From a virus (taxonomy: Duplodnaviria > Caudoviricetes): DNA of 59,486 nt. Both the position numbers and the translations under genes were made by a program. The stretch spans positions 1 through 59,486 of the IMG/VR virus record IMGVR_UViG_3300027917_000004. The stretch is one strand, 5' to 3'. Below, one piece after another: positions 10,549-53,886 of the stretch. The stretch's first letter is position 1. Each line of letters begins with the position of its first letter. The notes under the pieces are model-generated. The model had not been told where the DNA came from and ran no database searches. It saw only the letters and a list, made by a program, of their open reading frames with translations.

Positions 10549-11154
10549 ATGCCGCTCAAAAAAGGCTCATCTCAAAAAGCAGTTAGCTCGAATATCAGCG
10601 AATTGGTCCATTCTGGCCGTCCGCAGAAACAGGCTATTGCGATTGCTCTTGATGTGGCGCGGAAGCCTAGAAAAGCTTTTGGCGGCGCTCCGGCCCCTAA
10701 AACGCTCCCAATACTTCCAAAGGCTCCCGTTGCTAAAGGTGTCCAACAGGAAAAATTGCATGTCGGGCCGATCCATAGCCATGTAGCTGGCCGCACTGAT
10801 CACTTGCCTATGAAGGTTCCGTCAGGGTCCTACGTCATTCCAGCCGACATTATTTCTTCCATGGGGGAAGGAAATACAATGGCTGGTTTCCGGGTCGCCA
10901 AGCGTATTTTCAGCCGCCCAATTAATTACATGACCGGGTCTCCCGGGGCTTCGGCTTTTGCCAAGGGTGGTAGTGTTGAGCCTGTAGAAATTGTCGCAGC
11001 TGGCGGAGAATATGTTATTCATCCTGATGATGTAGCGTATCTTGGCGGCGAAGATTTAGATAAAGGTCATGCGGAGCTTGATAAATTCGTCAAACTCCAG
11101 AGAGCAAAAACTGTTAAAACACTAAGGAATTTACCGGGGCCAAAAAAGGACTGA
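10549..11154 (+). CDS. Conserved phage protein with two 'D-x-x-P...G(E/S)YVI(P/H)-x-D' modules and GG motifs
   Basis: MPLKKG...QKQAIAIAL N-term; GRTDHLPMKVPSGSYVIPADII and AAGGEYVIHPDDV; AFGG and FAKGG motifs. Confidence 0.7.
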   Translation: MPLKKGSSQKAVSSNISELVHSGRPQKQAIAIALDVARKPRKAFGGAPAPKTLPILPKAPVAKGVQQEKLHVGPIHSHVAGRTDHLPMKVPSGSYVIPADIISSMGEGNTMAGFRVAKRIFSRPINYMTGSPGASAFAKGGSVEPVEIVAAGGEYVIHPDDVAYLGGEDLDKGHAELDKFVKLQRAKTVKTLRNLPGPKKD

Positions 11155-11163
11155 GGGGGTCTT

Positions 11164-11655
11164 ATGGCTAATAGCTTAGGGGTAAGAATTGGTACTCCAG
11201 CCGATGTTCATAAAATGATGGACCTTGCGTTGGCTGCCTGTGACGAAAATGGGTTTATTGAGCCAAATCCTGCTAAATTATTGCAGGAAATTTGGCCCGC
11301 ACTAAACCAAGAGGGTGGGCTGGTTGGAATAATTCCGGGCAAGGAGGGCGCTTTAGAAGGCGCGGTCCTTCTACGCATCGGAAACATGTGGTATTCTGAC
11401 CATGAAGTCTTGGAGGAAAAGGCCATTTTTATTCACCCTGATTTTCGGAGTGCAAAAGGTGGCCGGGCGCGGAAACTCTGCGAGTTCTCCAAGCATGTAT
11501 CTGATTCGCTGGGCGTCCCATTAATCATTGGGGTGCTTTCAAATCATAGGACGGAAGCAAAAATTCGTCTTTATGAACGTCAATTTGGCAAGCCAAGCGG
11601 CGCATTTTTCCTTTATAATGCCACTACTGGTGGCTGGAAGGACGCTGCGGAGTAG
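11164..11655 (+). CDS. GNAT-fold acyltransferase-like protein
   Basis: VRIGTPADV start, EKAIFIHPDFRSAKGGRARKL (acyl-CoA motif A-like), RLYER; directly upstream of ejection protein. Confidence 0.65.
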   Translation: MANSLGVRIGTPADVHKMMDLALAACDENGFIEPNPAKLLQEIWPALNQEGGLVGIIPGKEGALEGAVLLRIGNMWYSDHEVLEEKAIFIHPDFRSAKGGRARKLCEFSKHVSDSLGVPLIIGVLSNHRTEAKIRLYERQFGKPSGAFFLYNATTGGWKDAAE

Positions 11656-11660
11656 AAATT

Positions 11661-14600
11661 ATGGGCGGCAAATCAACTACTTCGACACAGACAGTATCTA
11701 TCCCGCCAGAGGTTATGGCGCGGTATAATGCTGTAAACGCCCGTGCTGAAGATGTTGCCGCCACTCCATTCCAGCCATATTCCGGTAAATTTGTCGCCCC
11801 GCTTTCTCCTACCCAACAAGCTGGCGTACAGAACACCAATGTCGCGGCAGGACAGGCCCAGCCTTACTATGGCGCGGCTACCGGCCTGACCCTCGCTGGG
11901 GCTCAGGATGTTGGCGCTCTGACCCCCGGTCAGATTTCCTATTATCAGAACCCATATACCCAAGCGGTCGTTGACCCTACGGTTCAAGCCCTTCGCCAAC
12001 AGCAGGGTCAGCAACTTTCGCAACAGCAATCCGATGCTATTCGGGCTGGCGCATTTGGCGGTGACCGTTCTGGCATCCAGAGGGCTGTCCTGCAAGGCCA
12101 ACAGGGTCTCGCTACGGCTCAAGCTATCGCGCCATTGTACCAGCAGGGCTACGGACAGGCTGTCCAGACCGCTGCCGGTCAACAGGGCGTTGTAGCCTCG
12201 GATTTGGCTCGTCGGATGCAAGCTGGTTCGCAAATTGCTGGCCTTGGTGCTGCGGCTCAACAGGCGGCTATCCAAGGTGCGCAAGCCCAACTTCAAGCTG
12301 GTGGCGTCGAACAACAGACGCAACAGGCCGATCTTACCGCCCAGTATCAGCAGTTCCTGCAACAGCGCGGCTATCCGTTCCAAGTCGCCCAGTTCCTTGC
12401 AAATATTGCGATGGGCACTGGCGCGTTGTCTGGTTCGACCACGACCACAGAACAGCCCAGCGGCCTGTTTTCGGATAAGCGTCTCAAGCACGATACAGAG
12501 CGTGTTGGCTATACTGATGACGGTTTGCCGATCTACACGTTCAAATACAACGGCGACAATAAGACCCAAATGGGTGTTATGGCGCAGGATGTTGAGAAAA
12601 AGCATCCTGATGCTGTTGGCGAGGCCCAAGCCTCTGACGGTCAAATGTACAAGACCGTCGATTATGGGAAATTGGACGCTAAAGAACGCGCTTATGGCGG
12701 CGGTTTAGACCCCAATTCCATGGGCGGCGCAGTCATGGAGTCTGGCGCATTTGCCCGTGGCGGATTCCTCGGTGGTGGCCTTGTTGGCGACACCGAAATG
12801 AAGTCCATGATGGCTAATATGAAGCAGCCACTGGGCATGTATCAGCAAGCTGGTTTGTATGGCTCAACACCATATCAGACCCCTTATGGACCGGGTCTCG
12901 GCATCCGTGGGGATGCCGTTCCCGTCCCTTCGCTTGTGACGGCTGGTTCTCTCAAATCTCCGCCACCTAGCGCGCTTCAGCAAGCTACATCTGCTTATAA
13001 GCAAATGAGTGATTTGGGCCAGATGGGTTCCGGTCTTTATGATTTTGGTGAGCGCGTTGCCGTTGGCCGCCCAGAAATCAAAGACGATAAGGGTAAAGTA
13101 ACCCAAGAAAAGTCATCTGGTCTTCTTGGTTCGGCTGGCAAGTATGATCCTAAGCAAGGGTGGCTTGGCTCAAAAGAAACAGCTGCGACTGGCGGTCTTG
13201 TTGGGCGTCTTCACTACGATATGGGCGGCGATCTTCCTTATAGCTCGGGCCAACAGGGTTATGACCCTATGGCTGAAATCATTAAGCAAGGTCAGCAGCA
13301 GCATTATGAACTTGCCAAGCCCGGCCAACTTCCAAAGCGCCCAGAGCCTTTGAAAGATGCCATGCAGACCGGAATGCAGATGTATTCCGCTGGCAAAATG
13401 GGTTCCAAAATTATTGATAAAGGTAAGGAACTTGTCGATAAAATGGGTAGCGAGCCAATGGCACCGGCTACCGGTCAAGTTCAAACTGACATTACAGCTA
13501 TGCCTGTGGCTCGCCCAACTGGCCTTGGTGCTGCTCCAGTTAACCCAGATGCCCCGGCTGCTGGCGCGAAAGCTGTTGAAGCAACACAGGCTACGCCAAA
13601 CGTTGCCGGGACCTATACGATCCCCGGCTCCGGCCAGACCGTTACTCCCGGATTGGCATCTGGTGCTGAAGCGCCTACGGCTGCTGTTGCTGAAACTATG
13701 CCGGAATCGGTGGGCGCTGCTGCTGCCCCCGCTGCTGAAACAGTCGCGGCTGCGGCTCCAGAAGCATTGGGTGCGGCTGAAGGTGCAACTGCACTTGCCG
13801 GTGGCGCAGAAGCACTGGGAGCAGCTGGTACGGCTGCCGCGGGTGCTGAAGAAGCTCTTCCATTTTTGCTTGCACTTCTTAAGCGTGGTGGCCGCGTCAA
13901 TGATCATCATTACGCAGAGGGCGGCTTGGTTCCGCGCCACGGTTATGCGAACGAGGGAACTGTTTCCTCACCTGCATATGACCCAGAAGATTTGGCAATC
14001 CGCACTATTGCTGCGGAAACTGGTGGCGATCCCGATGAAACAAAGGGTATCGCTGCGGTTATCAAAAATCGTTTGGATTCTGGCAAGTATGGTAAGTCCC
14101 TTGGTGACGTTGTCCTTGCTAAGGGGCAGTTCGAGCCTTGGGCTAATCCTGCCGCTCCTAATTATCCGATGCGTTTTGAGCCGGGCAACAAGCGTTATGA
14201 AGCTGCAAAAGATGCTTGGAACGCTGTTCAACAAGGCGATGACCCAACAGGTGGCGCTACTCATTTCTGGGCTCCGGCAGCACAAAAAGCATTGGGCCGT
14301 GCTGCACCAAGCTGGGGTCAACAAGGTGGCGTAGATATTGGCGCTACACGTTTTCATAAATTGGAAGATGATGGCGGTCTTGGCTCGAAGTACATGACCT
14401 ATGCCCCCCAGACAGGTGGCCTTGGTAATGCGGATGCTTTGAAGGCTATCGACCAAGCTGCGGGTAAGGCAACTGGGCTCGCATCTTATTTCCCGACAAA
14501 GAAAGATGATACCGGCGCTGAAACAACGGATTGGAAGAAAATCCTTATTCCGTTGGCAACCGGCATTGCTGGTGTGGCTGGTGCTCCAACCCGTAATTTG

Positions 14601-15923
14601 GGTACGGCTTTGGCTTTAGGTATTGGCGCTGGCGCTAAGAGCTATGCTGACATTGACAAGCAACAGGCTGACATTGCGTATCGCGAAGCTGAAACAGGTA
14701 AGCTTACGCAAGAAACTCAATTGTCTATGATTGATCGTCTTATCAAGATCAATCAGGTTCGCTTCCTTAATAAGTTGCAGCCAATTAAAACAATTGATGA
14801 ATATATGCGCCGCGCAAAGGATAACACTCTTTTGACGGATGAGCCTTCTGCGGTAGGCACTACAGGTGCAAAACCAGCTGGCGCAACTGTGCAGCCAGCC
14901 GCTGGTACACAGCCGTCTGAAGCAGCTGGTCAACCGGGGGCTAAAACTGAAGAAGCGAAAGCTCCTAGCGCCATTGATTGGAACCAAGTTGTCGATGTCG
15001 ATAACATTGAAAAAATGGGCGAAAAGGTTAACCGTTTGGAATCTTTGTTGAGCATCGAAACGGACCCTGACAAAATTGTATCCTTGACCAAGCAAATTCA
15101 AGACATCAACAGCCGCATTAAAGATGTTAAGGCACAGCCTTCATTGTTGTTGAAGAGCGGCGAAAAAATTACGCCGCCGTCTTGGGCTGCTCAACAGCGT
15201 TATGAGCAGAATTTGCCAGAGATTAACAAGACAGCAAACCAAATAGCTGAAAAACAAAAAGCAGCAGACGTAAACATGTCGCAGCTTGATAATATCGAAA
15301 AGGCTCTCGGCATTCTGCAAAGCGGCGCACTCATGAATTATAAAACTGATTTTGCTCGCGCCATGAATGCCGCTGGGTTCCCAGTTTCCGATAAACAAAT
15401 GTCGGATGTCGTAGAGGCACAAAAAGTAGTTAAGGATGCGTGGAACCAAATCTTTGCAAAAGCCGCCTCTCTTCCCGGGACAATTCGTAACCTTGAACTT
15501 CAAGGCGAGCAAAAAGCATCGAATGATATCAGCATCGAACCCGGTGCGAATAAAAACATCCTTGTTAATGGCAAGGCTGGTGTCGCTTATGAACGCCAAC
15601 ATGCTATTGATTGGAACAAGGCTCGATTGGAGCAGGGCGCACGGTTTGACCCATTGACGTTTGAAAATCAATGGCGAGCAGATCATCCTCAACTGTTGGA
15701 TCAGCTTAAAGCCCAATATACCAAGGATATTGCTTTGATGGGTGACACCCCCGTTAAAGATGGGAAAATTCTTGATTATGGGAAGCTCAAGGAAGGTCAT
15801 TCCTATATCATTACACCGGACATGATCACCCCTATGGGCCAATCTGTTGGTATCCAACAGCCCACAAAATTTAGGGCTGAACGTGGTCCAAAAGGAAATA
15901 TCGTTCTCAATCCGGTGCAATGA
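11661..15923 (+). CDS. Large internal virion (DNA ejection) protein with S74-like autoprocessing domain and SleB/Hydrolase_2 cell-wall hydrolase domain
   Basis: Gln/Ala-rich N-term; SDKRLK...GLPIYTFKY...GVMAQDVEK..P.AV...VDYGKL; RTIAAE...AVIKNR...GQFEPW...DPTGGATHF. Confidence 0.8.
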   Translation: MGGKSTTSTQTVSIPPEVMARYNAVNARAEDVAATPFQPYSGKFVAPLSPTQQAGVQNTNVAAGQAQPYYGAATGLTLAGAQDVGALTPGQISYYQNPYTQAVVDPTVQALRQQQGQQLSQQQSDAIRAGAFGGDRSGIQRAVLQGQQGLATAQAIAPLYQQGYGQAVQTAAGQQGVVASDLARRMQAGSQIAGLGAAAQQAAIQGAQAQLQAGGVEQQTQQADLTAQYQQFLQQRGYPFQVAQFLANIAMGTGALSGSTTTTEQPSGLFSDKRLKHDTERVGYTDDGLPIYTFKYNGDNKTQMGVMAQDVEKKHPDAVGEAQASDGQMYKTVDYGKLDAKERAYGGGLDPNSMGGAVMESGAFARGGFLGGGLVGDTEMKSMMANMKQPLGMYQQAGLYGSTPYQTPYGPGLGIRGDAVPVPSLVTAGSLKSPPPSALQQATSAYKQMSDLGQMGSGLYDFGERVAVGRPEIKDDKGKVTQEKSSGLLGSAGKYDPKQGWLGSKETAATGGLVGRLHYDMGGDLPYSSGQQGYDPMAEIIKQGQQQHYELAKPGQLPKRPEPLKDAMQTGMQMYSAGKMGSKIIDKGKELVDKMGSEPMAPATGQVQTDITAMPVARPTGLGAAPVNPDAPAAGAKAVEATQATPNVAGTYTIPGSGQTVTPGLASGAEAPTAAVAETMPESVGAAAAPAAETVAAAAPEALGAAEGATALAGGAEALGAAGTAAAGAEEALPFLLALLKRGGRVNDHHYAEGGLVPRHGYANEGTVSSPAYDPEDLAIRTIAAETGGDPDETKGIAAVIKNRLDSGKYGKSLGDVVLAKGQFEPWANPAAPNYPMRFEPGNKRYEAAKDAWNAVQQGDDPTGGATHFWAPAAQKALGRAAPSWGQQGGVDIGATRFHKLEDDGGLGSKYMTYAPQTGGLGNADALKAIDQAAGKATGLASYFPTKKDDTGAETTDWKKILIPLATGIAGVAGAPTRNLGTALALGIGAGAKSYADIDKQQADIAYREAETGKLTQETQLSMIDRLIKINQVRFLNKLQPIKTIDEYMRRAKDNTLLTDEPSAVGTTGAKPAGATVQPAAGTQPSEAAGQPGAKTEEAKAPSAIDWNQVVDVDNIEKMGEKVNRLESLLSIETDPDKIVSLTKQIQDINSRIKDVKAQPSLLLKSGEKITPPSWAAQQRYEQNLPEINKTANQIAEKQKAADVNMSQLDNIEKALGILQSGALMNYKTDFARAMNAAGFPVSDKQMSDVVEAQKVVKDAWNQIFAKAASLPGTIRNLELQGEQKASNDISIEPGANKNILVNGKAGVAYERQHAIDWNKARLEQGARFDPLTFENQWRADHPQLLDQLKAQYTKDIALMGDTPVKDGKILDYGKLKEGHSYIITPDMITPMGQSVGIQQPTKFRAERGPKGNIVLNPVQ

Positions 15924-18295
15924 TGGCTGATCAAAACGCTCCTTCCTCCATCGATCTTGGCGTCCCTTTTCCAGAAAAAGAGGACGTAAAATCGATTGAG
16001 CTTGAACCAGTTACATCTGAAACACCGGGCGTCCGTGGGTACGAATCCCGCGTCCGTGAATATATGCCCAAGGCTACAGAAGCAGTTTTGGCAGCAGACA
16101 AAGATACGCTTGCCGGTATCCCGTATCAAAGATTTACGATCCCATATAGCTCGCTTCCTGTAGTTGGACCACTCTATAGGTCTGCTGTTTCTGCTATTGA
16201 AGCGGCTCGCGGAATGGGTGAAGGCGAAACTTTTGGAGAGCGTCATACAAGCAATATTGCTTGGAAAGAGGCTTTAGATCGTGCGCGCCAACAACAGTTT
16301 CCAAAATCTCAAGTTGCAAGTGAAGTTGCAGGTGGCTTAACGGCTGCTTTGGCAACACCAGCTTTAGAGGTTGGAAATATTGGCGCTCAAACAATGCAAA
16401 AAGCCGCCCAATTTTTAGCTCAAAGAGAAATGCCAGCATTTGGAGAAATGATTAGCAAAGTTCCGGGCGCTCTTTCTGAAATAGCTAAGGGTGGTATTTA
16501 CGGCGGCACTTCATCTCTTGCGGAACGTAAGCCCGGTGAAACTCTTGCAGAGACAGGTGAGCGGACTGCTATTGGAACTGCTATTGGTGCGGGCGCTCCA
16601 GTTGTTGCTGGTGCCGCTAGAAAAGGTATTGATAAATTTGGCGAGTCAATACTCGATCCCAAAACAGCCGTTCTTCGTGAGCTTTATGGCGTTTCACCAT
16701 CTATGGGTCCAAAATCAAAAGGACCTATGACTCCAGAAGAATTTGTGTCTCTGCAACAGGCTGGCAAGGATGTAAATGTCGCTGATATTATTGGCGCGCC
16801 AGAAAGAATTTCCAAAGCAGCTGGGGCAAGCACTGCTGACAATCGTCTTGATTCCTTAAATCAAAGGCTTCAAGAAAGGTTTGAGGCCAATATTGGTAAC
16901 ATTGGCCGTACGGTTGATAATGTTTTTGGCACACCTGTGAATGCTTTCCAGCTTAGGGATCAAGCAGAAAAAATTGCTCGGAATACAAACGCACCTTTGT
17001 ATAACCGCGCCTATGCCCACCCGGACGCTCAAAATATTTGGGATGATTCAATTGGGCGAATCCTTAATACAAATGAAGGCAAAACCGCGCTTCAATGGGC
17101 TGATAACGAAGCCCGAAAAGCTGCTGTCGATGCTGGTCGCTCCGCACCTCGCAACCCATTCCAGATTGATGAACAAGGGAACGTCACTCTTCGCCCCGGC
17201 GAAACTGGTGCGCCGCTTGAGTTTCTTGATTGGGTAAAACGAGGCCTCAACAAGGTTTATGCAGAGCAAAGTTCTTCTGCAACGGGTCCGCGTGATCCGG
17301 CTCGTCAATCTACGCAAGAAATTACCGAATTATTCACCAATCTTCTTAAAGATAAAGTTCCAGCTTATGGGGATGCTTTGTCAAATGCGGGTAAATTTAT
17401 TCGCGGTGATAATGCATTTGATGCAGGAACGAAATTTTTTGAGCTTCTACCAACTTATGGCCGCACAAATCCGGGTCAACTTGACGCTCAATTGGCAAAG
17501 TTTAGTCCTTTCCAACGGAATCCATTGTCTTATGAAGAACAGCAACAATTCCGTCTAGGCATTGGTTCTTGGATTAAAGAAAACCCAACACAAGCGGCGG
17601 CTATCTTTAAAGGTAACAATGAAGCCTCTGTGAGAGCTAAAGAAGCCCTTCAAAAGGTTCTTGGCGAGGATGCTTATCGATCTATCGACCAATCAATGCG
17701 AGTTGCCCGTGTTTCAGATTTGGTTAGGGAAATCAGAGCAAATGTAACTCAAAACCAAAATATAACACCAAAGCAGATGTTTTTATCTACAGCTGCGGGT
17801 TCGTCAATCCCATATAACTATGAACATATTATTAATATGGTCCAATCCCATCCTTATATGGCTGCTCTAAGCGGAATATATGGTCTTGGCTCTATGGGCT
17901 CACGAATGATGGGTAATCGCCGCATGAATGCACTGTTGGATATGGCTTCATCAGAAGACCCGGCAGTTGCAGCTAAGGCTGCTGAAACTCTGTCAAAAAT
18001 TGCAGCTGGTGACACGCGGTGGGAAAAATCCCTAAATAAGATTGAAGACACATTGAGCATTTATTTGGCTCAACAACATATGGGCGAACCAGCCCTACCA
18101 GTTGTTGGACCAACAAAGCTTGAAGAACGCAAAATGGGTCGGAAGTCTGGTGGCCGTGTTACCGCAGAAGGCCTTGTCGCTGCTGCTGAACGCGCCAAGA
18201 AGGCCGTCAACAAAACGACAGAGCCGTTGCTGAATAAAGATGATACTTCCGTGGCGCGGGCTCTGGAAGTCGCAAACAAGCATATTGAGGGCTGA
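15920..18295 (+). CDS. Internal virion (ejection) protein
   Basis: 791 aa helical Ala/Gly-rich protein after the ejection gene; C-term RKSGGRV...VARALEV. Confidence 0.6.
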   Translation: MMADQNAPSSIDLGVPFPEKEDVKSIELEPVTSETPGVRGYESRVREYMPKATEAVLAADKDTLAGIPYQRFTIPYSSLPVVGPLYRSAVSAIEAARGMGEGETFGERHTSNIAWKEALDRARQQQFPKSQVASEVAGGLTAALATPALEVGNIGAQTMQKAAQFLAQREMPAFGEMISKVPGALSEIAKGGIYGGTSSLAERKPGETLAETGERTAIGTAIGAGAPVVAGAARKGIDKFGESILDPKTAVLRELYGVSPSMGPKSKGPMTPEEFVSLQQAGKDVNVADIIGAPERISKAAGASTADNRLDSLNQRLQERFEANIGNIGRTVDNVFGTPVNAFQLRDQAEKIARNTNAPLYNRAYAHPDAQNIWDDSIGRILNTNEGKTALQWADNEARKAAVDAGRSAPRNPFQIDEQGNVTLRPGETGAPLEFLDWVKRGLNKVYAEQSSSATGPRDPARQSTQEITELFTNLLKDKVPAYGDALSNAGKFIRGDNAFDAGTKFFELLPTYGRTNPGQLDAQLAKFSPFQRNPLSYEEQQQFRLGIGSWIKENPTQAAAIFKGNNEASVRAKEALQKVLGEDAYRSIDQSMRVARVSDLVREIRANVTQNQNITPKQMFLSTAAGSSIPYNYEHIINMVQSHPYMAALSGIYGLGSMGSRMMGNRRMNALLDMASSEDPAVAAKAAETLSKIAAGDTRWEKSLNKIEDTLSIYLAQQHMGEPALPVVGPTKLEERKMGRKSGGRVTAEGLVAAAERAKKAVNKTTEPLLNKDDTSVARALEVANKHIEG

Positions 18296-40464: not shown

Positions 40465-40483
40465 CATCTCTGAGGGGGGATAC

Positions 40484-42213: not shown

Positions 42214-44547
42214 ATGCCTTTAACGCCCGGCCTTGTCCCTAACATCCGCGAGCTTGGCTCCGATCCCGCAGCCATGCCGTCTGAGGACGATATCGTCATT
42301 GAGATGGTAGAGGACCAAGACGCGCCGGAGATCGATGAAAAAGGCAATGTCATCAAGATCGAACACGCAGACGGTTCGATTACGATTTCGCTGGATGGTC
42401 GCCCCGTCGAAGAAAATATCAAAGAGAAGGATATGGCGGATTGGTTCCGCAACCTTGTCGAAGATATCGATGACATGGAACTTTCCAGCATTGCCAGCGA
42501 CTTGATCCGTGGCATTGATGATGACATTTCATCGCGCCGCGAGTGGATCGAAGACCGCGCACAAGGCTTGAAGCTTCTTGGCCTTAAGGTTGAAATTCCC
42601 GGCCTCCAAGGCGCTACAGATGGCGCGCCAGTTGAAGGCATGTCCAAGGTCCGCCACCCGCTTCTTCTCGAAGCCGTGTTGCGCTTCCAAGCCAATGCCC
42701 GTTCAGAACTTCTCCCGACAGATGGTCCAGTCAAAGTTCGCAATGACAACAACAATGCGAACCTTAAAGATGACCAGCTTGGTAATGCGCTTGAGAGCGA
42801 TCTCAATCATTACCTGACAGCAGTTGCCAAAGAATATTATCCAGACACAGATCGTATGCTTCTGATGTTGGGTTTTGGCGGCACAGCTTTCAAGAAAGTT
42901 TACTTCTGCCCGCTGCGTAACCGTCCTGTCTCTGAGACAGTTGATGCAGACGATTTGATCGTCAATAACGCAGCCACAGACCTTTCAAATGCCAAACGCG
43001 TTACGCAGCGCATTTACATGCGGCCTTCAACGGTCAAGCGTATGCAAATTCTTGGCGCGTATCGTGACATTGATTTGTCTACGCCAAATGAACCTGACTA
43101 CGATGAGGTTCAAAAAGCTGAACGCGCACAGCAAGGCATTAACGATGGATCGATGAACCCGGAAGACCGGGATCGTGAGATTTACGAATGCTATTGCGAA
43201 CTTAATCTGCGCGGCTTTGAGCATAAGCACAAAGGCAAAGAAAGCGGTTTGGAAATTCCGTACCGCGTAACGATTGACGTTTCTTCCAAGCAAATCCTGT
43301 CAATTGTCCGTAACTATGACGAAGACACCGCAGAGCTTCCAGAAGCTCGCCAGAACTTCGTCAAGTACACTTTTGTTCCGGGCTTTGGTTTCTACGACAT
43401 CGGCCTCCTGCATATCCTTGGCAACACGACCAATGCAGTGACTGCTGCATGGCGCGAAATGCTTGATGCGGGCATGTACGCAAACTTCCCCGGCTTCCTT
43501 ATGGCCGACAGCGGTGCGCGTCAGAACACCAACATTTTCCGTGTTCCTCCGGGCGGCATGGCTCTTGTGAAAACAGGCGGTATGCCGATCAACCAAGCCA
43601 TCATGCCGTTGCCGTATAAAGAACCCGGCGCTGCTTTGATGAACCTTGTCGATAACATGGCTCAGACAGGTATGCGCGTTGGCGGCACAGCTGAAATGGC
43701 TGTTGGCGAAGGCCGCGCTGATGCACCTGTCGGCACAACCATTGCGCTGATTGAGCAAGCTAAAGTTGTCATGAGTTCGGTGCATAAGCGCCTTCATGCT
43801 TCACAGGCTGAAGAGTTCCAGTTGCTGCGCCGTACGTTCGAAGAACATCCAGACAGCTTCTGGCAGCGTAATCGGGCTACTGCATTCCCGTGGGATGAAA
43901 AAACATTTACGGATGCATTGAAGAACTTTTTGCTGGTCCCACAAGCTGACCCGAATACAGCTTCCAGCATCCAGCGCATGATGAAGGTCGTTGCTCTCAA
44001 GCAATTGGCTGCACAAAACCCTGCGCTGTATGATCCGATTGCGGTTGATATTGCCGCTCTTCAAGCGATGGGTTGGAACAACCCGCAGCAGTTTATGGCT
44101 CCGCCTTCCGCTCAAGGAAAGCCGCCGCCGGAACTGTTGGAGAAGATGGCAAACATCCAAGCCAAGCAAAAAGAAGCAGATGCCCGCATGTTGGATTCGC
44201 AGACCCGCGCTGCCGAATCACAGGCGCGTTTGCAGCTGGATCAGCAAAAGCTTCAGATGGAAATGGGCGGTGGCCTCAACGGTGGCATAGACCCCGAAAA
44301 GGCTATGCAGTTCCAAATCCAACAGGCAGAAATCCAACAGCGCCAACAAGATACAATGTTGGACGCTATTAACCGCAAACGCGACCGCGAATCACGCGAG
44401 CGTTTGGCTGCCATCAAACTGGCTGAAGAAGCCGCCCGTAACCCGCAAGGTTTGGGTATCATCCAAAGCATCGTAACCCCTGACATGCTGGCTCGCCTTG
44501 AGGGTAATGAGCCGGGTCTTGATGGACAGCAGACCGGAGAACTCTAA
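42214..44547 (+). CDS. Portal protein
   Basis: 777 aa; SRREW, HPLLLEAVLRFQA.A..ELLP.DGPVK, GTAFKKVY, GFYDIGLLHILG, PVGTTIAL, Gln-rich C-term barrel. Confidence 0.9.
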   Translation: MPLTPGLVPNIRELGSDPAAMPSEDDIVIEMVEDQDAPEIDEKGNVIKIEHADGSITISLDGRPVEENIKEKDMADWFRNLVEDIDDMELSSIASDLIRGIDDDISSRREWIEDRAQGLKLLGLKVEIPGLQGATDGAPVEGMSKVRHPLLLEAVLRFQANARSELLPTDGPVKVRNDNNNANLKDDQLGNALESDLNHYLTAVAKEYYPDTDRMLLMLGFGGTAFKKVYFCPLRNRPVSETVDADDLIVNNAATDLSNAKRVTQRIYMRPSTVKRMQILGAYRDIDLSTPNEPDYDEVQKAERAQQGINDGSMNPEDRDREIYECYCELNLRGFEHKHKGKESGLEIPYRVTIDVSSKQILSIVRNYDEDTAELPEARQNFVKYTFVPGFGFYDIGLLHILGNTTNAVTAAWREMLDAGMYANFPGFLMADSGARQNTNIFRVPPGGMALVKTGGMPINQAIMPLPYKEPGAALMNLVDNMAQTGMRVGGTAEMAVGEGRADAPVGTTIALIEQAKVVMSSVHKRLHASQAEEFQLLRRTFEEHPDSFWQRNRATAFPWDEKTFTDALKNFLLVPQADPNTASSIQRMMKVVALKQLAAQNPALYDPIAVDIAALQAMGWNNPQQFMAPPSAQGKPPPELLEKMANIQAKQKEADARMLDSQTRAAESQARLQLDQQKLQMEMGGGLNGGIDPEKAMQFQIQQAEIQQRQQDTMLDAINRKRDRESRERLAAIKLAEEAARNPQGLGIIQSIVTPDMLARLEGNEPGLDGQQTGEL

Positions 44548-46043
44548 TGGTTGACCGCCCCTCCACAGCGACTATGCGCCGCCGGATGTATGTCCCGGAG
44601 GAGCGGCCAGATTATGAGTCTTACATTGCTGATCCTGAGAACCAGCGCCTAGCTGAAGAAGCAGCAATGAATTTGATTGCTTTGGGCATGGGGCCAATGG
44701 GTGAAATCCCAGCTGGTCTTCGTTTGGCGCGTAATGTTTTGGGCGGTGCTCGTCTTGCAAATAAAGGGGAGCAGCTTCTTCCGCGCCCAGATCGTGGCAA
44801 TGCCATGCGTCCAGAAGAAATGTTGACCCCAGAGCCGCAAGCTCCGTGGTTAGCTGCTGATCAAAATCGTTGGTATCCAACAAAATATAATACCAAAGAT
44901 AATTTGTTGCCTAAACCGCAGCGCCCGCAAATGACTGAAGAAGAAATGCAAGCAATGGAAATTGCTCGCATGGTTGGCGAGGGTGGCCCATCGTTTTCAA
45001 AACAGGAAGCTGCTCGTCGCGAAGTTCGTCGTCGTCCTTCTGAAGAAGAAATGCGTGCAAATGAAGTTGCGCGTATGGAATCAGAAGGCGGCATGGACCC
45101 AGAACTGGCTGCTTTGCTGCGCACTATTAAAGAAGATCGTGAACGTGCTGCACATGCTGAAGACCTTGCCCGCTTTGAGGGTGAAGGCGGCGGTGCATGG
45201 ACCTATACGGGTCCCCGTTACAAGTATGGTCTCCCAGCCACTCAAGGTTCTCGCGAAGTTATGCCGTTCAACGCTGGCGCTCGCGAAATGATTCCATATG
45301 GCTCCAGCAGCAGCGTTCCGACATTTGCCGGTGGTCGCGGCGGCATGGATTTGCTGACACCATCTTATCGTTTTGCTGAAGGCCAAGAAGCTCTTATGCC
45401 TCCTGCTGGTGGCGGTAGACTTCCGCCTCCAAGCGGCGGCGCAGCACCGGGCGCTTCAGTTCCTCCTTCTAGTGGCGGGTTTACTGGTTTCCAAACAAAA
45501 GTTCCGTATGGCGGGGAAGCAGCCAATTTTGCGTTAGGTGATATGCCGGGCTCAGTGGGCGCTTTAACTCGTTCAGTGCCGCCGTTTGCATTCTCAATAA
45601 ATGAAGAAGTCAATAAACTTAAAGCACAGCGACAGGCCGCTAATACCCCAGCCCAAACGCAAGCTCCTGCGGTAACGCCAGAAGACTTGTTTGATATGCG
45701 TAATGCTCCTGCCCCTGTTTATACGCCAGCCGACCTTTTTGATATGCGGTCTGCGCCAGCAGGAAAAGGAAGCCCTGCTCGTTCTTCTGGCGCTCCTGCT
45801 CCGGCACCAGCTGCAAAACAATCCACTGGCGCGGATATTCGTGCGCTTTGGGAAAATTACAACAAGAGCGGCGAAGCAGCTGATTTCATTCGTGCCGACA
45901 AGGCCATGCAAGAAGCTCGCAAGGCCGGTATTGATCTCGGCCTTCCAACAGCACAGGGCGAAAAGCGCGGTGGTTCTGTCGAGAAGAAGCCAGATGCAGT
46001 GCATAAGGCTCTTGAGATCATCCATCACCTTGTGACGCGATAA
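44547..46043 (+). CDS. Low-complexity putative internal head protein with internal repeats and C-terminal KRGG tag
   Basis: AR(M/F)xxEGG x3, TPxDLFDMRxAP x2, ends EKRGGSVEKKPDAVHKALEIIHHL. Confidence 0.65.
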   Translation: MVDRPSTATMRRRMYVPEERPDYESYIADPENQRLAEEAAMNLIALGMGPMGEIPAGLRLARNVLGGARLANKGEQLLPRPDRGNAMRPEEMLTPEPQAPWLAADQNRWYPTKYNTKDNLLPKPQRPQMTEEEMQAMEIARMVGEGGPSFSKQEAARREVRRRPSEEEMRANEVARMESEGGMDPELAALLRTIKEDRERAAHAEDLARFEGEGGGAWTYTGPRYKYGLPATQGSREVMPFNAGAREMIPYGSSSSVPTFAGGRGGMDLLTPSYRFAEGQEALMPPAGGGRLPPPSGGAAPGASVPPSSGGFTGFQTKVPYGGEAANFALGDMPGSVGALTRSVPPFAFSINEEVNKLKAQRQAANTPAQTQAPAVTPEDLFDMRNAPAPVYTPADLFDMRSAPAGKGSPARSSGAPAPAPAAKQSTGADIRALWENYNKSGEAADFIRADKAMQEARKAGIDLGLPTAQGEKRGGSVEKKPDAVHKALEIIHHLVTR

Positions 46044-46045: not shown

Positions 46046-46399
46046 ATGACCAGCTACCCGCTCAGACATCATACAGATTGGGAAGAAGCCCATGACTATG
46101 AGAAAACTGGCGGGAAGCTAGTTCACATGTCTCCTGATGAATATTTGTCAAAAGTGAAGCCATTGAACATGGATCACAATGACAAGCACATTATTCATCA
46201 TTTTAAAAAACAGATAAAAAAGGGAGAGAAACTTGACCCTATCGCAATTTACCCAGACGGCCATCCAAACGGTCGCCACCGCGCTCACGCGGCTAAAGCT
46301 TTGGGCCTCAAAAAAATTCCAGTGGTGATTTGGCCCAAGAAGAAACGAGGCGGCTCTATTGTAGACCGCGCTCTTATGCTAACATCTAAAAAGGCTTAA
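46046..46399 (+). CDS. Small ParB/sulfiredoxin-like N-terminal-domain protein with C-terminal KRGG tag
   Basis: MSPDEYL, LDPI.I, NGRHRAHAAKALGLKKIPV; ends KKRGGSIVDRALML. Confidence 0.65.
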   Translation: MTSYPLRHHTDWEEAHDYEKTGGKLVHMSPDEYLSKVKPLNMDHNDKHIIHHFKKQIKKGEKLDPIAIYPDGHPNGRHRAHAAKALGLKKIPVVIWPKKKRGGSIVDRALMLTSKKA

Positions 46400-46437: not shown

Positions 46438-48324
46438 ATGTCAAGTCTGGCTAAACAGGCCCGTGAGGCCATGAAGGCGAAGGCATCCCGCCTTACGACC
46501 GCCGACCCACACCAAAAAGTTGATTCGTCCAATTGGACCCCGGCTGAACCGCTGAACACAGAGGTTAAGACCGGTCTTCGCCCCGTGAGCCGCCGTGCTT
46601 TTAAGTCGGGCGGCAAGGTGACGGGTGCTAAGTCTAAGGCCAACCTTGGCAAGAAGGCTCGTAATTCGGGCGGTAAAGCCATTACGGCTGACAGCCTGAT
46701 CAACCGTAACGTCAAAGAAGCCAATGAAGAGCGGCCCGGCGGCAAGGCTCACATTGGTGGTTACAAGAAGGGTGGCCGTCTGAAGCGTAATGCTGGCGGC
46801 GATGCCATCAAGGACTATTTGGATGCCAACCCAGACTCTAAGCCAGAGTCGGTGCCGCTTCCGCCTCCCCGTCCTAAGAATTTGGATGCACCCAAGCCTG
46901 AGAAGTTCAAGTCACCTTATGATTTGAACACGCAGCGCGCCAAACGTGGTGGCAAAGCTGAAAAGTGCTGGGGCGGAAAAGCAAAGAAAGCTGATGGCGG
47001 CTCACTGGACGCTGCCAAGCAGATGATGATGCAAGCCCAGAAAACCGCTGGCGTTCCGTCGAGCGGCATTTATGGCTCTGGCTTTACACGCACTGGCGCG
47101 GGTTCCATGAGCCCAGCTGGCGCTCTCGGTAAGCAGAAGCTGAAAAAAGGCGGCGCTGCCCATGAAGACGTTAAAGCCGATATGGCGCTCATTAAGAAAA
47201 TGGTGAAGCCGTCTGCTATGCGTAAAGGCCGTGCTGGCGGCGGTATGCTTGGTGGTACAGCTTCGACGCTTGACCCAGTTGGCACACCTCAAGCTATCAA
47301 AGACCCACTTAACCTTGGTAAGGGCGTTACCGACCCTTTGGGCATTGATAAGCCGCTTAAGCGCGGCGGTCGTACGGCCCGCAAAGAAGGCGGCGGCGTC
47401 TTCTCCGGCCCCGGCTATCCCGGCAAAGTTCCCGGCGTAGTTGGTGGCCGTCAGGCCCACGCAACCCGTGGTCGCGTTAAAACCGCAGACGATATTGCAG
47501 CAGAATATGCAATGCGCGGCCCAGATGAAGCGATGCAATCCATTGTTCATGGCGGTCTTCCACCGGGTGAATATAAAGCTTCCGGTCAGTCCGCTATGCG
47601 TCCTCAAGATTGGGAAGCTGTGCGGAATAGCATGTATGATGATGCTATGCGCCGTTCTCTCATGGATTCTTCGCGCAACAACGATTTGATGTACCTTTAT
47701 GACAAAGCCATGAGTGGCGCTCAACCAAGCATGAGCGAATACACTGGGGCGGCGGGTGCTTCATTAGCCCCGGAAGAAACGATAGGAATGGATATGGCCC
47801 GCCGTCATGGTGGCCGTACAGCCCATGCTAAAGGCGGCAAAGCAAAGGGCAAAGGCAAAACCCACATCAACATCATGATTGCTGCTGGCAAACCCGGCAT
47901 GGGCGATATGATGCCTCCGGGTGGCCCAACGCCTCCTCCGGGAATGGATGGTGGTCCGGGTGGCATCGCGCCAGTGCCTATGGCTCCTCCTCCGGGCGGC
48001 GCTCCGGGCGCTCCAATGCCGATGCCTATCCCGATGCCAATGCCAATGGCTGGCGGCGCTCCTGCTGGCGGTCCTCCGCCGGTTGGCCGCAAATCGGGTG
48101 GTCGCCTGACCAAGGTCGCGCATTCATACAAAGATATGGAAGCGGGTGCTGGTTCGGGTGAGGGCCGTTTGCAGAAAACGGACATTGCCAAGTTTAAAGC
48201 TGGCCGTAAGGCTGGTGGCAAAGTTGGGCATCGCACCTATCGTTCGTACAAGGATATGGACGCTGGCGCGGGTTCTGGTTTTGGCCGTTTGGAAAAAGCG
48301 GAGATTCAATCCCGCAAGAAATGA
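46438..48324 (+). CDS. Basic low-complexity protein with at least 14 xxGG motifs (putative internal head polyprotein)
   Basis: FKSGGKV, YKKGGRL, AKRGGKA, KADGGSL, LKKGGAA, LKRGGRT, HAKGGKA, RKSGGRL, RKAGGKV etc. Confidence 0.75.
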   Translation: MSSLAKQAREAMKAKASRLTTADPHQKVDSSNWTPAEPLNTEVKTGLRPVSRRAFKSGGKVTGAKSKANLGKKARNSGGKAITADSLINRNVKEANEERPGGKAHIGGYKKGGRLKRNAGGDAIKDYLDANPDSKPESVPLPPPRPKNLDAPKPEKFKSPYDLNTQRAKRGGKAEKCWGGKAKKADGGSLDAAKQMMMQAQKTAGVPSSGIYGSGFTRTGAGSMSPAGALGKQKLKKGGAAHEDVKADMALIKKMVKPSAMRKGRAGGGMLGGTASTLDPVGTPQAIKDPLNLGKGVTDPLGIDKPLKRGGRTARKEGGGVFSGPGYPGKVPGVVGGRQAHATRGRVKTADDIAAEYAMRGPDEAMQSIVHGGLPPGEYKASGQSAMRPQDWEAVRNSMYDDAMRRSLMDSSRNNDLMYLYDKAMSGAQPSMSEYTGAAGASLAPEETIGMDMARRHGGRTAHAKGGKAKGKGKTHINIMIAAGKPGMGDMMPPGGPTPPPGMDGGPGGIAPVPMAPPPGGAPGAPMPMPIPMPMPMAGGAPAGGPPPVGRKSGGRLTKVAHSYKDMEAGAGSGEGRLQKTDIAKFKAGRKAGGKVGHRTYRSYKDMDAGAGSGFGRLEKAEIQSRKK

Positions 48325-49984: not shown

Positions 49985-50593
49985 ATGACTAATGCATCAA
50001 ATCCTCGTCCCCGTGGCCGTCCGCGTAAGGTTCAAGCCGCTGCACCGGTGGTTTCTGCCCAAGAAGAGGCAGTAATCAACGAATCTTTTGATGGACGCCC
50101 TCCGCTTCGCGCCCCAATGCGTGATGAAGACCCTCGCGCCCGTGCGGCTCGCCGTGCGGCTGAAATTAAGGGCCACCTTGGCGGCAATATGGATGAAGGG
50201 ACCGATGAATTCTTTATCGACACCCGTACCGTGCCGGATGGCTGGACCTATGAGTGGAAGCGCCGGACCGTTTTGGGCAAAGAAGACCCGGCTTATCAGG
50301 TTTCTTTGGCGCGTCTGGGTTGGGAGCCTGTTCCGGCTAGCCGTCACCCCGAAATGATGCCAGCTGGCATGAGTGCAGCTGATATTGAGCGTAAAGGCAT
50401 GGTCCTTATGGAGCGACCAAAGGAAATTACGGACGAAGCTCGTCGTATTGACGCGCAGAAGGCCCGTAATCAGGTCCGCGCCAAGGAACAGCAGCTTAGT
50501 TACGCCCCGGAAGGCACCCTTCCGCGTGACCACGCTCAAGCGCGTCCAAATATCAAGAAAAGCTACTCGCCAGTGGATATTCCCACGGATTAA
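49985..50593 (+). CDS. Conserved head-module protein
   Basis: PDGWTYEWKR...GWEPV....HPE...G.VLMERP. Confidence 0.7.
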   Translation: MTNASNPRPRGRPRKVQAAAPVVSAQEEAVINESFDGRPPLRAPMRDEDPRARAARRAAEIKGHLGGNMDEGTDEFFIDTRTVPDGWTYEWKRRTVLGKEDPAYQVSLARLGWEPVPASRHPEMMPAGMSAADIERKGMVLMERPKEITDEARRIDAQKARNQVRAKEQQLSYAPEGTLPRDHAQARPNIKKSYSPVDIPTD

Positions 50594-50614
50594 TCTCTGG
50601 CTAATTAGCATTTG

Positions 50615-51385: not shown

Positions 51386-52300
51386 ATGGCTGTTAATCTT
51401 TCTGCCATCAAAGACCTTCTCCTCCCCGGTCTCCGTGGGGTTGAAGGCAAGTACGAGATGATCCCATCTCAGTACGACAAAATCTTCACCAAGCATGAAT
51501 CGAAGATGGCTCTGGAACGCACTGCTGAAATGCGCTTCCTCGGCCTCGCCCAGTTGAAGACTGAAGGCGGCCAGACGGCTTTCGACAACAACGCTGGTGA
51601 GCGTTATGTCTACAACCAAGAGCATATTGAAATCGGTCTCGGCTACGCGATCACTCGCAAAGCCATCGATGACAATCTCTACAAGACACAGTTCCACCCA
51701 TCGAACCTCGGCCTGATTGAATCTTTCCAACAGACCAAGGAAATCTATGGCGCGAACATCTTGAACACTGCCACGACCTATAACTCGGCTGTTGGCGGTG
51801 ACGGCAAGGCGCTCTGCGCTACGGACCATCCGATTGACGGTGGCACGGTTGCGAACAAGCCTTCGGTGGACGTTGACCTTAACGAGTCGACCCTGCTGAA
51901 CGCGATGATCGCCATCCGTACCAACTTCAAGGATCAGGCTGGTCTGAAAGTGTTTGCGCGTGGCCGCAAGCTCATCGTGCCTCCGGCACTTGAGCCTGTT
52001 GCTATCCGTCTTCTCAAGACTGAACTGCGTCCCGGCTCTGCCGACAATGATGTCAATGCAATTCTTACAACCGCTGGCGGCTTGCCAGAGTCGTATATGG
52101 TCAACGACTTCTTGACCTCGGCTTACGCTTGGTTCCTGCTTACGAACATCGACGGTCTCTCCTACATGGAGCGAGTGAAGTTCGAAACAGATATGCAGGT
52201 AGATTTTGTGACCGACAACTTGCTGGTTAAGGGGTATGAACGGTACTCCTTTAGCTATTATAATTGGAGGGCTATCTATGGCAGCTTCCCAACTACTTGA
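51386..52300 (+). CDS. Major capsid protein
   Basis: LLPGL, S..A.E, K.EG, ITRKAIDDNLY, GDGKALC...HP, LIVPPAL, NDFLT...AWF, YERYSF...NWR. Confidence 0.88.
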   Translation: MAVNLSAIKDLLLPGLRGVEGKYEMIPSQYDKIFTKHESKMALERTAEMRFLGLAQLKTEGGQTAFDNNAGERYVYNQEHIEIGLGYAITRKAIDDNLYKTQFHPSNLGLIESFQQTKEIYGANILNTATTYNSAVGGDGKALCATDHPIDGGTVANKPSVDVDLNESTLLNAMIAIRTNFKDQAGLKVFARGRKLIVPPALEPVAIRLLKTELRPGSADNDVNAILTTAGGLPESYMVNDFLTSAYAWFLLTNIDGLSYMERVKFETDMQVDFVTDNLLVKGYERYSFSYYNWRAIYGSFPTT

Positions 52301-52389: not shown

Positions 52390-53055
52390 ATGAAGGGTAA
52401 AGCTAGGGTTCCTAGTCTTACGCACCAGCAAGTTCGGGATGCATTGGATTACAATCCTGCTACCGGGGAGTTTGTGTGGAAGATCAGTCCAGCAAAGAAT
52501 GTAAAGTCTGGAACTAGAGCAGGTGGATATAGCAAGAGCAATAGCTATCGCTATATCCGTCTTTTTGGTGAAGAAGTTACAGAATCTAGACTGGCTTGGT
52601 TTTATATGACTGGCGAATGGCCGAAACGGCGGGTTAGATTCAAAAATGGCAATCTTGATGATTGCAGATTTGAAAATCTAACTCTCTTCAACGGCATCGG
52701 CGGTGAGTTTGATCATAAAACCTCTGAAGGCCGTAAGGCTTATTTGAGAGCATATAGATCAAAAACGCCACTGATCCAAAAGTCCCGCGCATTGCGTGAT
52801 AGCTTTAACCTTTCATTAGATCAGTATTCAGAAATGCTGAAGGCCCAAAACGGTGTATGCGCGATCTGTAACCAACCAGAAACGCATATGCGGAACGGAA
52901 AGCTAAAAGCATTGGCCGTAGATCATGACCACAAAAGTGGTGCAATCCGGGGTCTTCTGTGTTCTGATTGCAATACAGGGATTGGAAAGCTGAAAGACGA
53001 CCATAAGGTTCTTCAATCAGCAATTCAGTATCTGGAAAAGTCTAGGAATCCTTAG
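52390..53055 (+). CDS. Homing endonuclease (degenerate HNH_3-like N-term plus endonuclease VII domain)
   Basis: YNPATGEFVW; QNGVCAIC...LAVDHDH.SG.IRGLLCSDCNTGIG. Confidence 0.88.
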   Translation: MKGKARVPSLTHQQVRDALDYNPATGEFVWKISPAKNVKSGTRAGGYSKSNSYRYIRLFGEEVTESRLAWFYMTGEWPKRRVRFKNGNLDDCRFENLTLFNGIGGEFDHKTSEGRKAYLRAYRSKTPLIQKSRALRDSFNLSLDQYSEMLKAQNGVCAICNQPETHMRNGKLKALAVDHDHKSGAIRGLLCSDCNTGIGKLKDDHKVLQSAIQYLEKSRNP

Positions 53056-53598: not shown

Positions 53599-53886
53599 AT
53601 GAAAGGTCGTTCCAAGCGTGCTTCTGGCGGCGTCAATGAAATGGCGCAGGACATGGGCAAGAAGAATATGCGTTATACCTATCAGTCGAACGTCAATGAC
53701 GAGGCTGAAGAGCGTAAGCGCGGTGGCAAAGCTGTTGGCAAGGTCAAAGGCATGAAGGGTAAAGCGGACATGGGCCGCAAGCCTCGCAAGTCCGGTGGCC
53801 GCACTGGCTCGAACATGAGCCCGCTGTCTTCGGCAGCTAAGGGTACACCGGCTCCGGGCCGTAACGTCTCTGGCAGCCTTGACTAA
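53599..53886 (+). CDS. Small basic protein with three xxGG motifs
   Basis: KRASGGV, RKRGGKA, RKSGGRT. Confidence 0.7.
   Translation: MKGRSKRASGGVNEMAQDMGKKNMRYTYQSNVNDEAEERKRGGKAVGKVKGMKGKADMGRKPRKSGGRTGSNMSPLSSAAKGTPAPGRNVSGSLD

Follow-up and report, generated by a model that had tools for sequence, protein, structure and literature searches.

A conserved Gly-Gly junction peptide joins the modules of a 628-residue phage protein and recurs in other virion-module proteins of an uncultured podovirus

How a phage chooses the proteins that it packs and injects, such as anti-defence enzymes, cell-wall hydrolases, and polymerases, is known for a few model phages, each with a different signal. In T4, the capsid-targeting sequence is an N-terminal signal of about 10 residues that is removed by the gp21-type prohead protease at L/I-x-E, and the T4 internal peptides, like adenovirus mu and VII, are small and basic and remain associated with the DNA. 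Adenovirus core proteins are basic internal proteins cut at Gly-Gly by adenain, and the consensus for proteases of this type has its hydrophobic residue at the fourth position ahead of the cleaved bond (M/I/L-x-G-G). C39 leaders are single N-terminal leaders that end in GG and are accompanied by an ABC exporter with a C39 domain, and encapsulin cargo-loading peptides are short C-terminal tails that take unrelated enzymes into an HK97-fold shell. In Bacteroides phage crAss001, 12 copies of the cargo protein C1 (gp45) sit on the portal wing via an internal domain, residues 425–552, and one chain is proposed to span the capsid and the tail (Bayfield et al. 2023, PMC10172136). The tape-measure protein pb2 of the siphovirus T5 is reported to be cut after R1127 during assembly (Linares et al. 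2023, PMC10038345); this site is contested, with V1148 as the alternative and R1127 being a trypsin site. Polyvalent proteins and MuF (SPP1 gp7-type) effectors are described as variable multi-domain proteins that are encoded beside the portal and whose packaging and injection are predicted (Iyer et al. 2017, PMC5512222). Here, we analyzed the whole virus record IMGVR_UViG_3300027917_000004 (59,486 bases; the window), which has direct terminal repeats and a completeness rating of 100%; it represents the entire 59.5-kb genome of a podovirus whose portal is of the SU10 type. Its 628-residue protein consists of short conserved helical modules strung together by a single conserved junction peptide, approximately [F/Y/K/R]-[K/A]-x-G-G-[K/R/S]-[V/A/I/T] (the tag), and the same peptide is found in linkers and at the bases of the terminal tails of other virion-module proteins, and not in replication proteins. 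We put at about 40% the probability that the tag is an uncut docking or junction element that loads cargo, with the 628-residue protein as a multivalent carrier.

The 628-residue protein is encoded between the portal gene and the scaffold and capsid genes (Table 1) and contains 100 Gly, 78 Ala, 67 Lys, and 56 Pro residues. A first-pass annotation, made from the sequence, had listed at least 14 copies of a Gly-Gly motif in this protein. All 14 heptapeptides (FKSGGKV, RNSGGKA, YKKGGRL, RNAGGDA, AKRGGKA, KCWGGKA, KADGGSL, LKKGGAA, LKRGGRT, RKEGGGV, RRHGGRT, HAKGGKA, RKSGGRL, and RKAGGKV) are present in the translation, with the GG pairs at aa 58, 78, 112, 120, 171, 179, 187, 238, 310, 318, 458, 466, 554, and 593. 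The bracketed pattern given for them fitted eight of these sites and failed at the other six; the eight matches compare with 0.08–0.15 in shuffled sequences, none of 5000 reaching this number. The 28 GG pairs of the protein exceeded the averages of 15.8, 17.2, and 19.0 obtained by shuffling globally, in 40-residue blocks, and in 20-residue blocks, and 28 pairs were reached in 3, 10, and 39 of 5000 shuffles, respectively. The residue context was a stronger signal than the bare GG count: GG-[KR]-[AVLT] occurred 11 times against 0.66–0.98 expected (0/5000 shuffles of each type). The patterns were picked after inspection of the data, which makes the exact enrichment ratios generous; the margin is nonetheless large. 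The motif goes beyond the Gly and Lys content, the trivial explanation raised together with it, because composition-preserving shuffles fall far short of the observed counts.

Homologs of the 628-residue protein numbered 1591 among 8000 scored candidates, and an exhaustive search gave 874 metagenomic clusters at 50% identity; among the matches listed, the sources name the family only "hypothetical protein". The strict tag was present in 5–14 copies per homolog (mean 8.8, n = 120 homologs). In the context averaged over the same 120 homologs, the third position before GG was R/K in 43% and the second was K in 38% or A in 16%, and GG was followed directly by R/K in 41% and then by A/T/V in 49%. 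The aliphatic residue two positions past GG and the aromatic residue before GG were conserved in homologs, and two alignments, of 16 and 103 homologs, showed GG columns that were either invariant or had at least 90% conservation. The segments between the sites were strongly conserved too, namely the N-terminal 60 residues, a K-K-G-G...A-L-I-K-K-M-V-K module, a G-V-F-S-G-P-G-Y-P-G-K block, a K-G-K-T-N-I-N-I strand, and two C-terminal repeats, and the variable inserts of the homologs fall between tags. The invariant residues of the central module are K236, K237, G238, G239, A250, L251, I252, K253, K254, M255, and K257, with a predicted helix at 245–255. The C-terminal repeats contain helices 574–588 and 614–626, with blocks of predicted local distance difference test (pLDDT) scores of 72–86, and are encoded by a 64-nt unit that occurs twice with 78% identity (48123 and 48243). 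Apart from this unit and some short runs, the DNA lacks repeats, as had been noted at first pass, and the view that selection acts on the peptide agrees with a motif that is enriched and conserved while its coding DNA is largely unrepeated.

The AlphaFold2 model of the 628-residue protein (103 sequences) had a mean pLDDT of 56.3, with 297 of 628 residues below 50 and ten short helices, and every tag lay in or beside a stretch with pLDDT < 50, between helices. The Atlas model had a pLDDT of 0.40, and its structure matches had template modeling (TM) scores of 0.20 or less. The models are mostly of low confidence and suggest that the protein is probably disordered. It had no Pfam (E up to 5), PHROG, or PDB-sequence relative, and ten longer homologs (736–987 aa) had no Pfam domain. 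PF10685, which we take to be the KGG stress-protein repeat, gave no match, the Pfam scans of the 628-residue protein at E up to 5 being empty, and the AT-hook core R-G-R-P was present in 0 of 38 homologs.

Outside the 628-residue protein, the pattern [KR].?GG[KRS][AVILT] matched 13 times in the structural half of the window against 1.09 expected, in the proteins of 201, 163, 1420, 791, 498, 117, and 95 residues, and 0 times in the early region (19978–42210) against 0.49 expected, which is not a significant depletion by itself. This distribution by module agrees with the earlier remark that the replication and recombination proteins hold no comparable clusters. The sites proposed at first pass were seen in the 95-residue protein (three; Table 1), the 201-residue protein (two, at aa 45 and 140), and, once each near the C-terminus, the 791-, 498-, and 117-residue proteins (aa 744, 475, and 102, respectively); for the 1420-residue protein, about six had been proposed and about four tag-like sites were found (aa 346, 367, 743, and 754). 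A more general motif, [FYWKR][AKR].GG.[AVILT], had one match in 321 stop-to-stop, out-of-frame open reading frames (ORFs) outside the gene set (31,490 aa), and the strict tag had none. We also collected 46 viral contigs that hold both a portal and a homolog of the 628-residue protein; these loci are mutually related, so that counts across them are not independent events. In these loci, the general motif matched 260 times in the 628-residue homologs against 7.6 expected, 58 times in post-portal ORFs against 5.1, 0 times in the portals against 1.2 (n = 42), and 2 times in minus-strand ORFs against 2.2. The claim that the motif marks virion-internal proteins is upheld to the extent that the tag is conserved in relatives and occurs solely in proteins of the virion module for which an internal or ejected location is likely.

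These results bear on whether the tags are passive flexible linkers, in which Gly-Gly and charged residues survive in fast-evolving disordered spacers with no specific reader. The position of the tags in low-confidence linkers, at insertion/deletion boundaries, and the variation of the site number from 5 to 14 among homologs are in line with such linkers, but the flank preferences are far beyond composition (0/5000 local shuffles reach the observed count), the site positions are invariant over hundreds of clusters, and Gly-rich fibres are nearly tag-free: the fibre ORF at 21–3296 has 78 GG pairs with 1 general-motif match, and that at 19170–20000 has 49 GG pairs with 0. We regard passive linkers as a very improbable explanation.

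The post-portal ORFs of the 46 loci, which lie between the portal and the 628-residue homolog, range from 71 to 1531 aa and differ widely in domain content, with ParB-like, Amidase_2, ART-PolyVal (E 1.1e-34), and Hydrolase_2 (cell-wall hydrolase) bodies. In 43 of the 66 distinct post-portal ORFs, the last 70 aa contain a GG pair followed within 2–14 residues by an A-L-x-hydrophobic helix. The corresponding numbers were 0.36 on average in shuffles, 0/42 in portals, 4/374 in other plus-strand ORFs, and 0/133 in minus-strand ORFs, and several of the 23 post-portal ORFs that did not match bear looser versions of the tail. On these variable proteins, which include unrelated enzymes, the tag opens a portable C-terminal tail of which an amphipathic helix is the second half; this tail is new in the present analysis. 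The type A tail, G-G-S-[I/V]-V-D-[R/K]-A-L-M-L-T-S-K-K-A, was found in 17/66 cargo ORFs, and its helix in 1/374 other plus-strand ORFs. The type B tail, in which G-G is followed after about 10 residues by H-K-A-L-E-I-I-H-H, was found in 24/66; in an alignment of 31 type B tails, G63 was invariant and G62, A75, L76, I78, I79, and H81 were conserved at 90% or more. In relatives, the ParB-like domain with the tail terminates proteins of 125–903 aa. The C-terminal part is the only conserved part of the 498-residue protein among relatives, and the last ~66 residues are the only part of the 791-residue protein that matches orthologs in four of five related records. This tail-restricted conservation fits a conserved binding partner, the major capsid protein being 85–90% identical and the portal mostly 63–74% identical across loci.

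Two further features of the post-portal proteins were observed. The 498-residue protein contains, at aa 138–215, three acidic A-R-[M/F]-x-x-E-G-G repeats (GG at aa 146, 181, and 214), a negatively charged counterpart of the basic tag. In two relatives (L029, 4572–6359; L074, 5690–8323), the natural C-terminus of the post-portal protein lies exactly at K-G-G.

The basic residues of the tag could instead serve as DNA-contacting hooks of histone-tail-like internal proteins, which, at a flexible Gly-Gly, would neutralize the packaged DNA and travel with it. The 628- and 95-residue proteins are very basic (K+R 17% and 23%, respectively), their low-confidence structure models are consistent with disorder, and R-G-R-P AT-hook cores end 10/66 cargo ORFs of the relatives, mostly right after the type A helix. 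A 202-residue protein encoded between the scaffold and capsid genes (49985–50593, plus strand) also opens with an AT-hook (PF02178, E 0.27, below the cut-off). Many tags, however, lack basic flanks and read aromatic-A-x-G-G-S/T-V/I, as on the cargo tails (e.g., F-A-x-G-G-S-V) and in the 201- and 1420-residue proteins, and such flanks argue for protein recognition over charge. Moreover, the conserved aliphatic residue two positions after GG and the aromatic residue before it are superfluous for charge binding, and the glycines are invariant, not merely frequent. DNA hooks are improbable on this evidence.

The 201-residue protein belongs to a family with 3710 matches. Its AlphaFold2 model had a mean pLDDT of 75.5, with a good core, and both tags lay in the two low-pLDDT linkers. 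No match to this model was found at E 0.001 or below by Foldseek against the PDB, and the best Z score of VIA-align over 48,161 chains was 4.6, for the N-terminal hairpin only, the repeat domains being barely probed. The hairpin, aa 1–42 (10549–10674, phrog_2423), matches 100 phage records, with Acinetobacter, Caulobacter phiCbK-like, Pseudomonas, and Klebsiella phages and cyanophages among them. The N-terminal helix was considered as a tail of the same kind and rejected, since the hairpin is a separate, widespread module. PF20106 had no match in the window.

In the 1420-residue ejection protein, the position of the adjacent pair in Table 1 also bears a tag in the orthologs from the related records G001 and G002. 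This protein also contains Peptidase_S74, the endosialidase intramolecular chaperone, whose usual place is at tail-fibre ends; the domain suggests that the protein cleaves itself after the N-terminal ~270 residues. For the 791-residue protein, which bears a type C tail, single-protein patterns found no close relatives in viral contigs, and its orthologs came via the related records. The 95-residue protein resembles a miniature of the 628-residue protein. The 163-residue protein was rejected as a tagged protein: its single match is probably the acetyl-CoA-binding loop of a folded GNAT-like domain, presumably the GNAT cofactor loop judging by GNAT motif A. Its gene stands within the internal/ejection block and is conserved in the related records G003 and G004; the acetyltransferase could be an injected enzyme or a modifier of lysine-rich cargo.

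Table 1. Positions of the tagged proteins, their tags and tails, and the portal in the window
Feature	Position	Strand	Remark
Portal protein, SU10 type	42214..44547	+	Start of the cargo locus; without tag
498-aa post-portal protein, start overlapping the portal stop	44547..46043	+	13 GG pairs vs 5.2 expected
Type B tail of the 498-aa protein, aa 470-498	45954..46040	+	K-R-G-G-S-V, ~10 residues, helix H-K-A-L-E-I-I-H-H
117-aa ParB-like nuclease-domain protein	46046..46399	+	phrog_1033, E 1.3e-4
Type A tail of the 117-aa protein, aa 98-117	46337..46396	+	K-K-R-G-G-S-I-V-D-R-A-L-M-L-T-S-K-K-A
628-aa Gly/Lys/Ala/Pro-rich basic protein, 28 GG pairs (~12-14 in tag context)	46438..48324	+	Short helices and low-confidence tag-bearing linkers
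Central GG-plus-helix module, aa 236-257	47143..47208	+	K-K-G-G and A-L-I-K-K-M-V-K helix invariant in 16 homologs
Two C-terminal repeat units, aa 551-628, each after an R-K-x-G-G tag	48088..48321	+	Sole DNA-level repeat region
95-aa very basic protein, 3 tags (aa 10, 42, 66)	53599..53886	+	3 matches vs 0.076 expected; kept in 7 loci
201-aa protein, T7 gp14-like position	10549..11154	+	N-terminal helical hairpin and two beta-hairpin/two-helix units
First tag of the 201-aa protein, aa 42-46	10672..10686	+	After the N-terminal hairpin; G45 and G46 invariant in 56 homologs
Second tag of the 201-aa protein, aa 137-143	10957..10977	+	Linker before the second repeat; G141 invariant, G140 >=90%
163-aa GNAT-like protein	11164..11655	+	Acetyltransf_7, E 0.0066, below cut-off; single match at aa 99
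1420-aa ejection protein, T7 gp16-like	11661..15923	+	Peptidase_S74 aa 271-319; cell-wall hydrolase (Hydrolase_2) aa 796-885
Two adjacent tags of the 1420-aa protein, GG at aa 743 and 754	13878..13940	+	Between an Ala/Gly/Leu-rich hydrophobic stretch and the hydrolase domain
791-aa internal/ejection protein	15920..18295	+	phrog_5880
Type C tail, C-terminal 66 aa of the 791-aa protein	18095..18292	+	R-K-S-G-G-R-V, helix, V-A-R-A-L-E-V-A-N-K

The nearest named relatives by portal (~31–35% identity) are Pelagibacter phages HTVC027P and HTVC023P, Roseobacter phages CRP-901 and CRP-902, and Caulobacter phage RW. The only record close to the window is the uncultured MW202675, which is also the only one among the phage-collection records that has the 628-residue protein, the tails, or the full-length 201-residue protein. 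In the cultured Pelagibacter phage HTVC027P, the only cultured carrier of the tag that was found, a row of small basic proteins follows the portal, and four of them (gp44, gp46, gp47, and gp49) are tagged and hold the tag internally. Caulobacter phage RW has no tagged small basic proteins after its portal.

In the docking reading, the tagged proteins would be head-internal cargo injected with the DNA, and the tag with its helix would be an uncut docking or hinge element read by a conserved component of the head under assembly, either the portal or the inner capsid face, or by other tagged proteins. The tag would get the cargo loaded and keep the modules flexibly tethered for unfolding and exit via the tail; the dozen or so tags of the 628-residue protein would make it a multivalent carrier or a lining protein, and the single-tag proteins would be its co-passengers. 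The predicted models agree with the layout of a linear motif, as the tags of the 628- and 201-residue proteins lie in low-pLDDT linkers. We favour this reading because the C-terminal tail is portable between unrelated enzymes, the hydrophobic and aromatic flanks are conserved, the tails are kept while the bodies diverge, and there is a precedent in crAss001, where a cargo protein is bound to the portal and its resolved parts are bordered by GG pairs.

Several points weigh against it. Docking is a prediction from the sequences, and the receptor of the tag is putative; complex prediction of the capsid protein (21 rows, 92% mean column identity, very shallow) with the type B tail (31 rows) gave a score of 0.00, which speaks neither for nor against binding. 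Two invariant glycines in a disordered linker are a classic protease-site signature as well, and a dozen copies per chain are unusual for an address tag. The tag follows the N-terminal helix in the 201-residue protein but precedes the C-terminal helix in the tails; in either layout it separates the helix from the body, as expected of a cleavable or hinge linker and not of one fixed two-part binding surface. By analogy, the cut reported in T5 pb2, two residues upstream of a similar tag, may also point to cleavage. Furthermore, it is gene position and family matches that suggest the packaging of the tagged proteins, and the interrelated loci do not supply independent counts.

In a rival reading, the tag would be a proteolytic maturation site, at or next to which a host protease or an unrecognised phage protease would cut during head assembly. 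The cargo would thereby be freed from its targeting helix, and the 628- and 95-residue proteins would be chopped into small DNA-associated basic peptides. The invariant GG pairs with flanks constrained on both sides, the constant location of the tag where a helix or module meets the rest of the protein, and the presence in HTVC027P of small separate tagged basic proteins in place of one long protein agree with such a site, as does T5 pb2, where the reported cut at R|A-E-G-G lies in a layout like that at aa 743–754 of the 1420-residue protein. However, that T5 site is contested, and the cut was reported before the tag and not after GG; the small proteins of HTVC027P keep the tag internally; and in crAss001 gp45, G427-G428 is modelled as continuous with the downstream domain in the passages considered. 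The would-be P1 residue is basic at some sites and aromatic at others, a variation ill-suited to one protease. No peptidase family of any clan was found in the 38 window proteins scanned with Pfam or the 30 scanned with PHROGs, small ORFs not being scanned, save the Peptidase_S74 chaperone domain; the prohead protease family was absent from the PHROG scans, and the C39 and ABC families were absent from the Pfam scans. The 201-residue protein was considered as the missing protease, and Foldseek against the PDB and VIA-align, the latter barely probing its repeat domains, gave no protease-like fold match. We consider a maturation site somewhat less likely than an uncut docking element.

The flanks also differ from those of the substrates of GG-directed viral cysteine proteases (adenain, ASFV S273R, and Ulp-like enzymes), as described above, with which a parallel had been drawn at first pass. 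Counted from a putative cut after GG, position 4 is K in 38% or A in 16% and position 5 is R/K in 43% or F in 6% (120 homologs), which departs from the hydrophobic P4 consensus of adenain-type proteases, and the tags are multiple, internal, or C-terminal, in disagreement with the layout of C39 double-glycine leaders. Of the di-glycine code for sorting and/or maturation proposed in the first-pass annotation, the sorting part gained support from the sorting-like C-terminal tails on unrelated cargo enzymes, and the cleavage part has so far gained none; for the corollary that cuts yield many short basic peptides, no protease family was found in the scans above, and the stretches between the sites proved to be conserved modules. 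A combination of both, in which the tag is a general code for head loading and tail exit, serving as docking handle and protease release point in one, seems doubtful. The protease would then be a host enzyme or an unrecognised phage enzyme, for which the family of the 201-residue protein (invariant His/Ser/Asp, no known fold) is a candidate, and the 628-residue protein would be a polyprotein of at least a dozen DNA-condensing basic peptides, a phage counterpart of adenovirus core-protein maturation.

The gene order around the tagged proteins was as follows. The head module contains the large terminase (38586), the portal, a GroES-like protein, a scaffold-like protein, and a Mu gpT-like capsid protein (51386), and the tail and ejection modules contain an SU10-type adaptor, collagen-like fibres, two tail tubular proteins, and a T7-like internal-protein block (10189–18295). 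The capsid protein (51386–52300, plus strand) is unusually conserved, with the identity given above holding across loci L004–L082; across the same loci, the scaffolds are 35–60% identical, and almost all of the best 120 database matches of the capsid protein are at least 90% identical to it. Sequence searches of the PDB with the 202-, 197-, and 201-residue proteins and the capsid protein gave nothing below E 0.004. A longer antisense ORF (49997–50611, minus strand) is open across the DNA of the 202-residue gene and seems kept in eight loci; its conservation appears to be only a shadow cast by the true gene. The structural modules are interrupted by two HNH/endonuclease VII genes, one directly after the capsid gene (52390–53055, plus strand) and one at 6708–7379 (plus strand), which are probably homing endonucleases. 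A small protein with the fold of the RNA polymerase alpha C-terminal domain (Pfam E 3.2e-14) is encoded between the terminase and portal genes (40412–40840, plus strand). A homolog of the cell-cycle regulator GcrA (21181–21657, minus strand; Pfam E 3.5e-20) hints at an alphaproteobacterial host. The genome contigs with the 628-residue family were only five phage-size contigs of metagenome-assembled genomes, binned to unrelated phyla, and gave no host.

If the portable tail marks cargo, it would allow injected effectors to be predicted in metagenomes by a sequence rule and would offer a handle to load foreign proteins into phage heads, and it would link phage capsid loading with encapsulin cargo loading. 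The scale is that of a very large uncultured phage group, as judged from the 874 clusters of the 628-residue protein alone and the matches of the 201-residue family.

In comparison with known systems, literature searches found no paper describing the Gly-Gly tag. Like the 628-residue protein, crAss001 gp45 is, in the passages considered, a podovirus virion-internal protein with short structured parts and unresolved linkers, and aromatic-preceded GG pairs flank its resolved parts; its GG pairs are at 209, 263, 427, and 562, with G427-G428 inside a resolved part. It differs in that the aromatic residue mostly stands directly before GG and in having six such sites in 842 aa compared with about 12 in 628. 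The passages of Bayfield et al. covered here hold no discussion of a GG motif. PF25725, the crAss cargo protein 1 domain, had 0 matches at E up to 1 in a six-frame search of the window, and the Atlas feature score of the 201-residue protein, 0.77, was below the lead threshold. T5 pb2 likewise exits via the tail and has R-A-x-G-G (GG at 1130) between a hydrophobic stretch and a muralytic domain, and the 1420-residue protein shows the same order of hydrophobic stretch, tags, and Hydrolase_2; in contrast, pb2 is a tail protein with a single site, reportedly cut before GG, and not a multi-copy head protein. The T4 capsid-targeting sequence and the adenovirus core proteins are similar in that a short signal brings basic internal proteins into the particle and a head protease then trims them, with adenain cutting at Gly-Gly, whereas the T4 signal is N-terminal and the present tails are C-terminal or the tags internal, with no prohead protease found in the scans described above. 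Encapsulin peptides are likewise short C-terminal tails common to unrelated proteins, as is found here for the post-portal proteins (43/66 against 0.36 in shuffles); they differ in sequence, the tag being also internal and multi-copy and its binding to the capsid protein putative. As for the polyvalent and MuF effectors, no Pfam family was found at E <= 0.01 in the 498-, 117-, and 628-residue proteins, no MuF match at E up to 5, and no passage on such a tail in the parts of Iyer et al. considered. These effectors resemble the post-portal proteins of this freshwater clade in carrying variable effector domains beside the portal, ART-PolyVal and ParB-like domains here, and differ from them in that the common element of the latter is the C-terminal GG-plus-helix tail.

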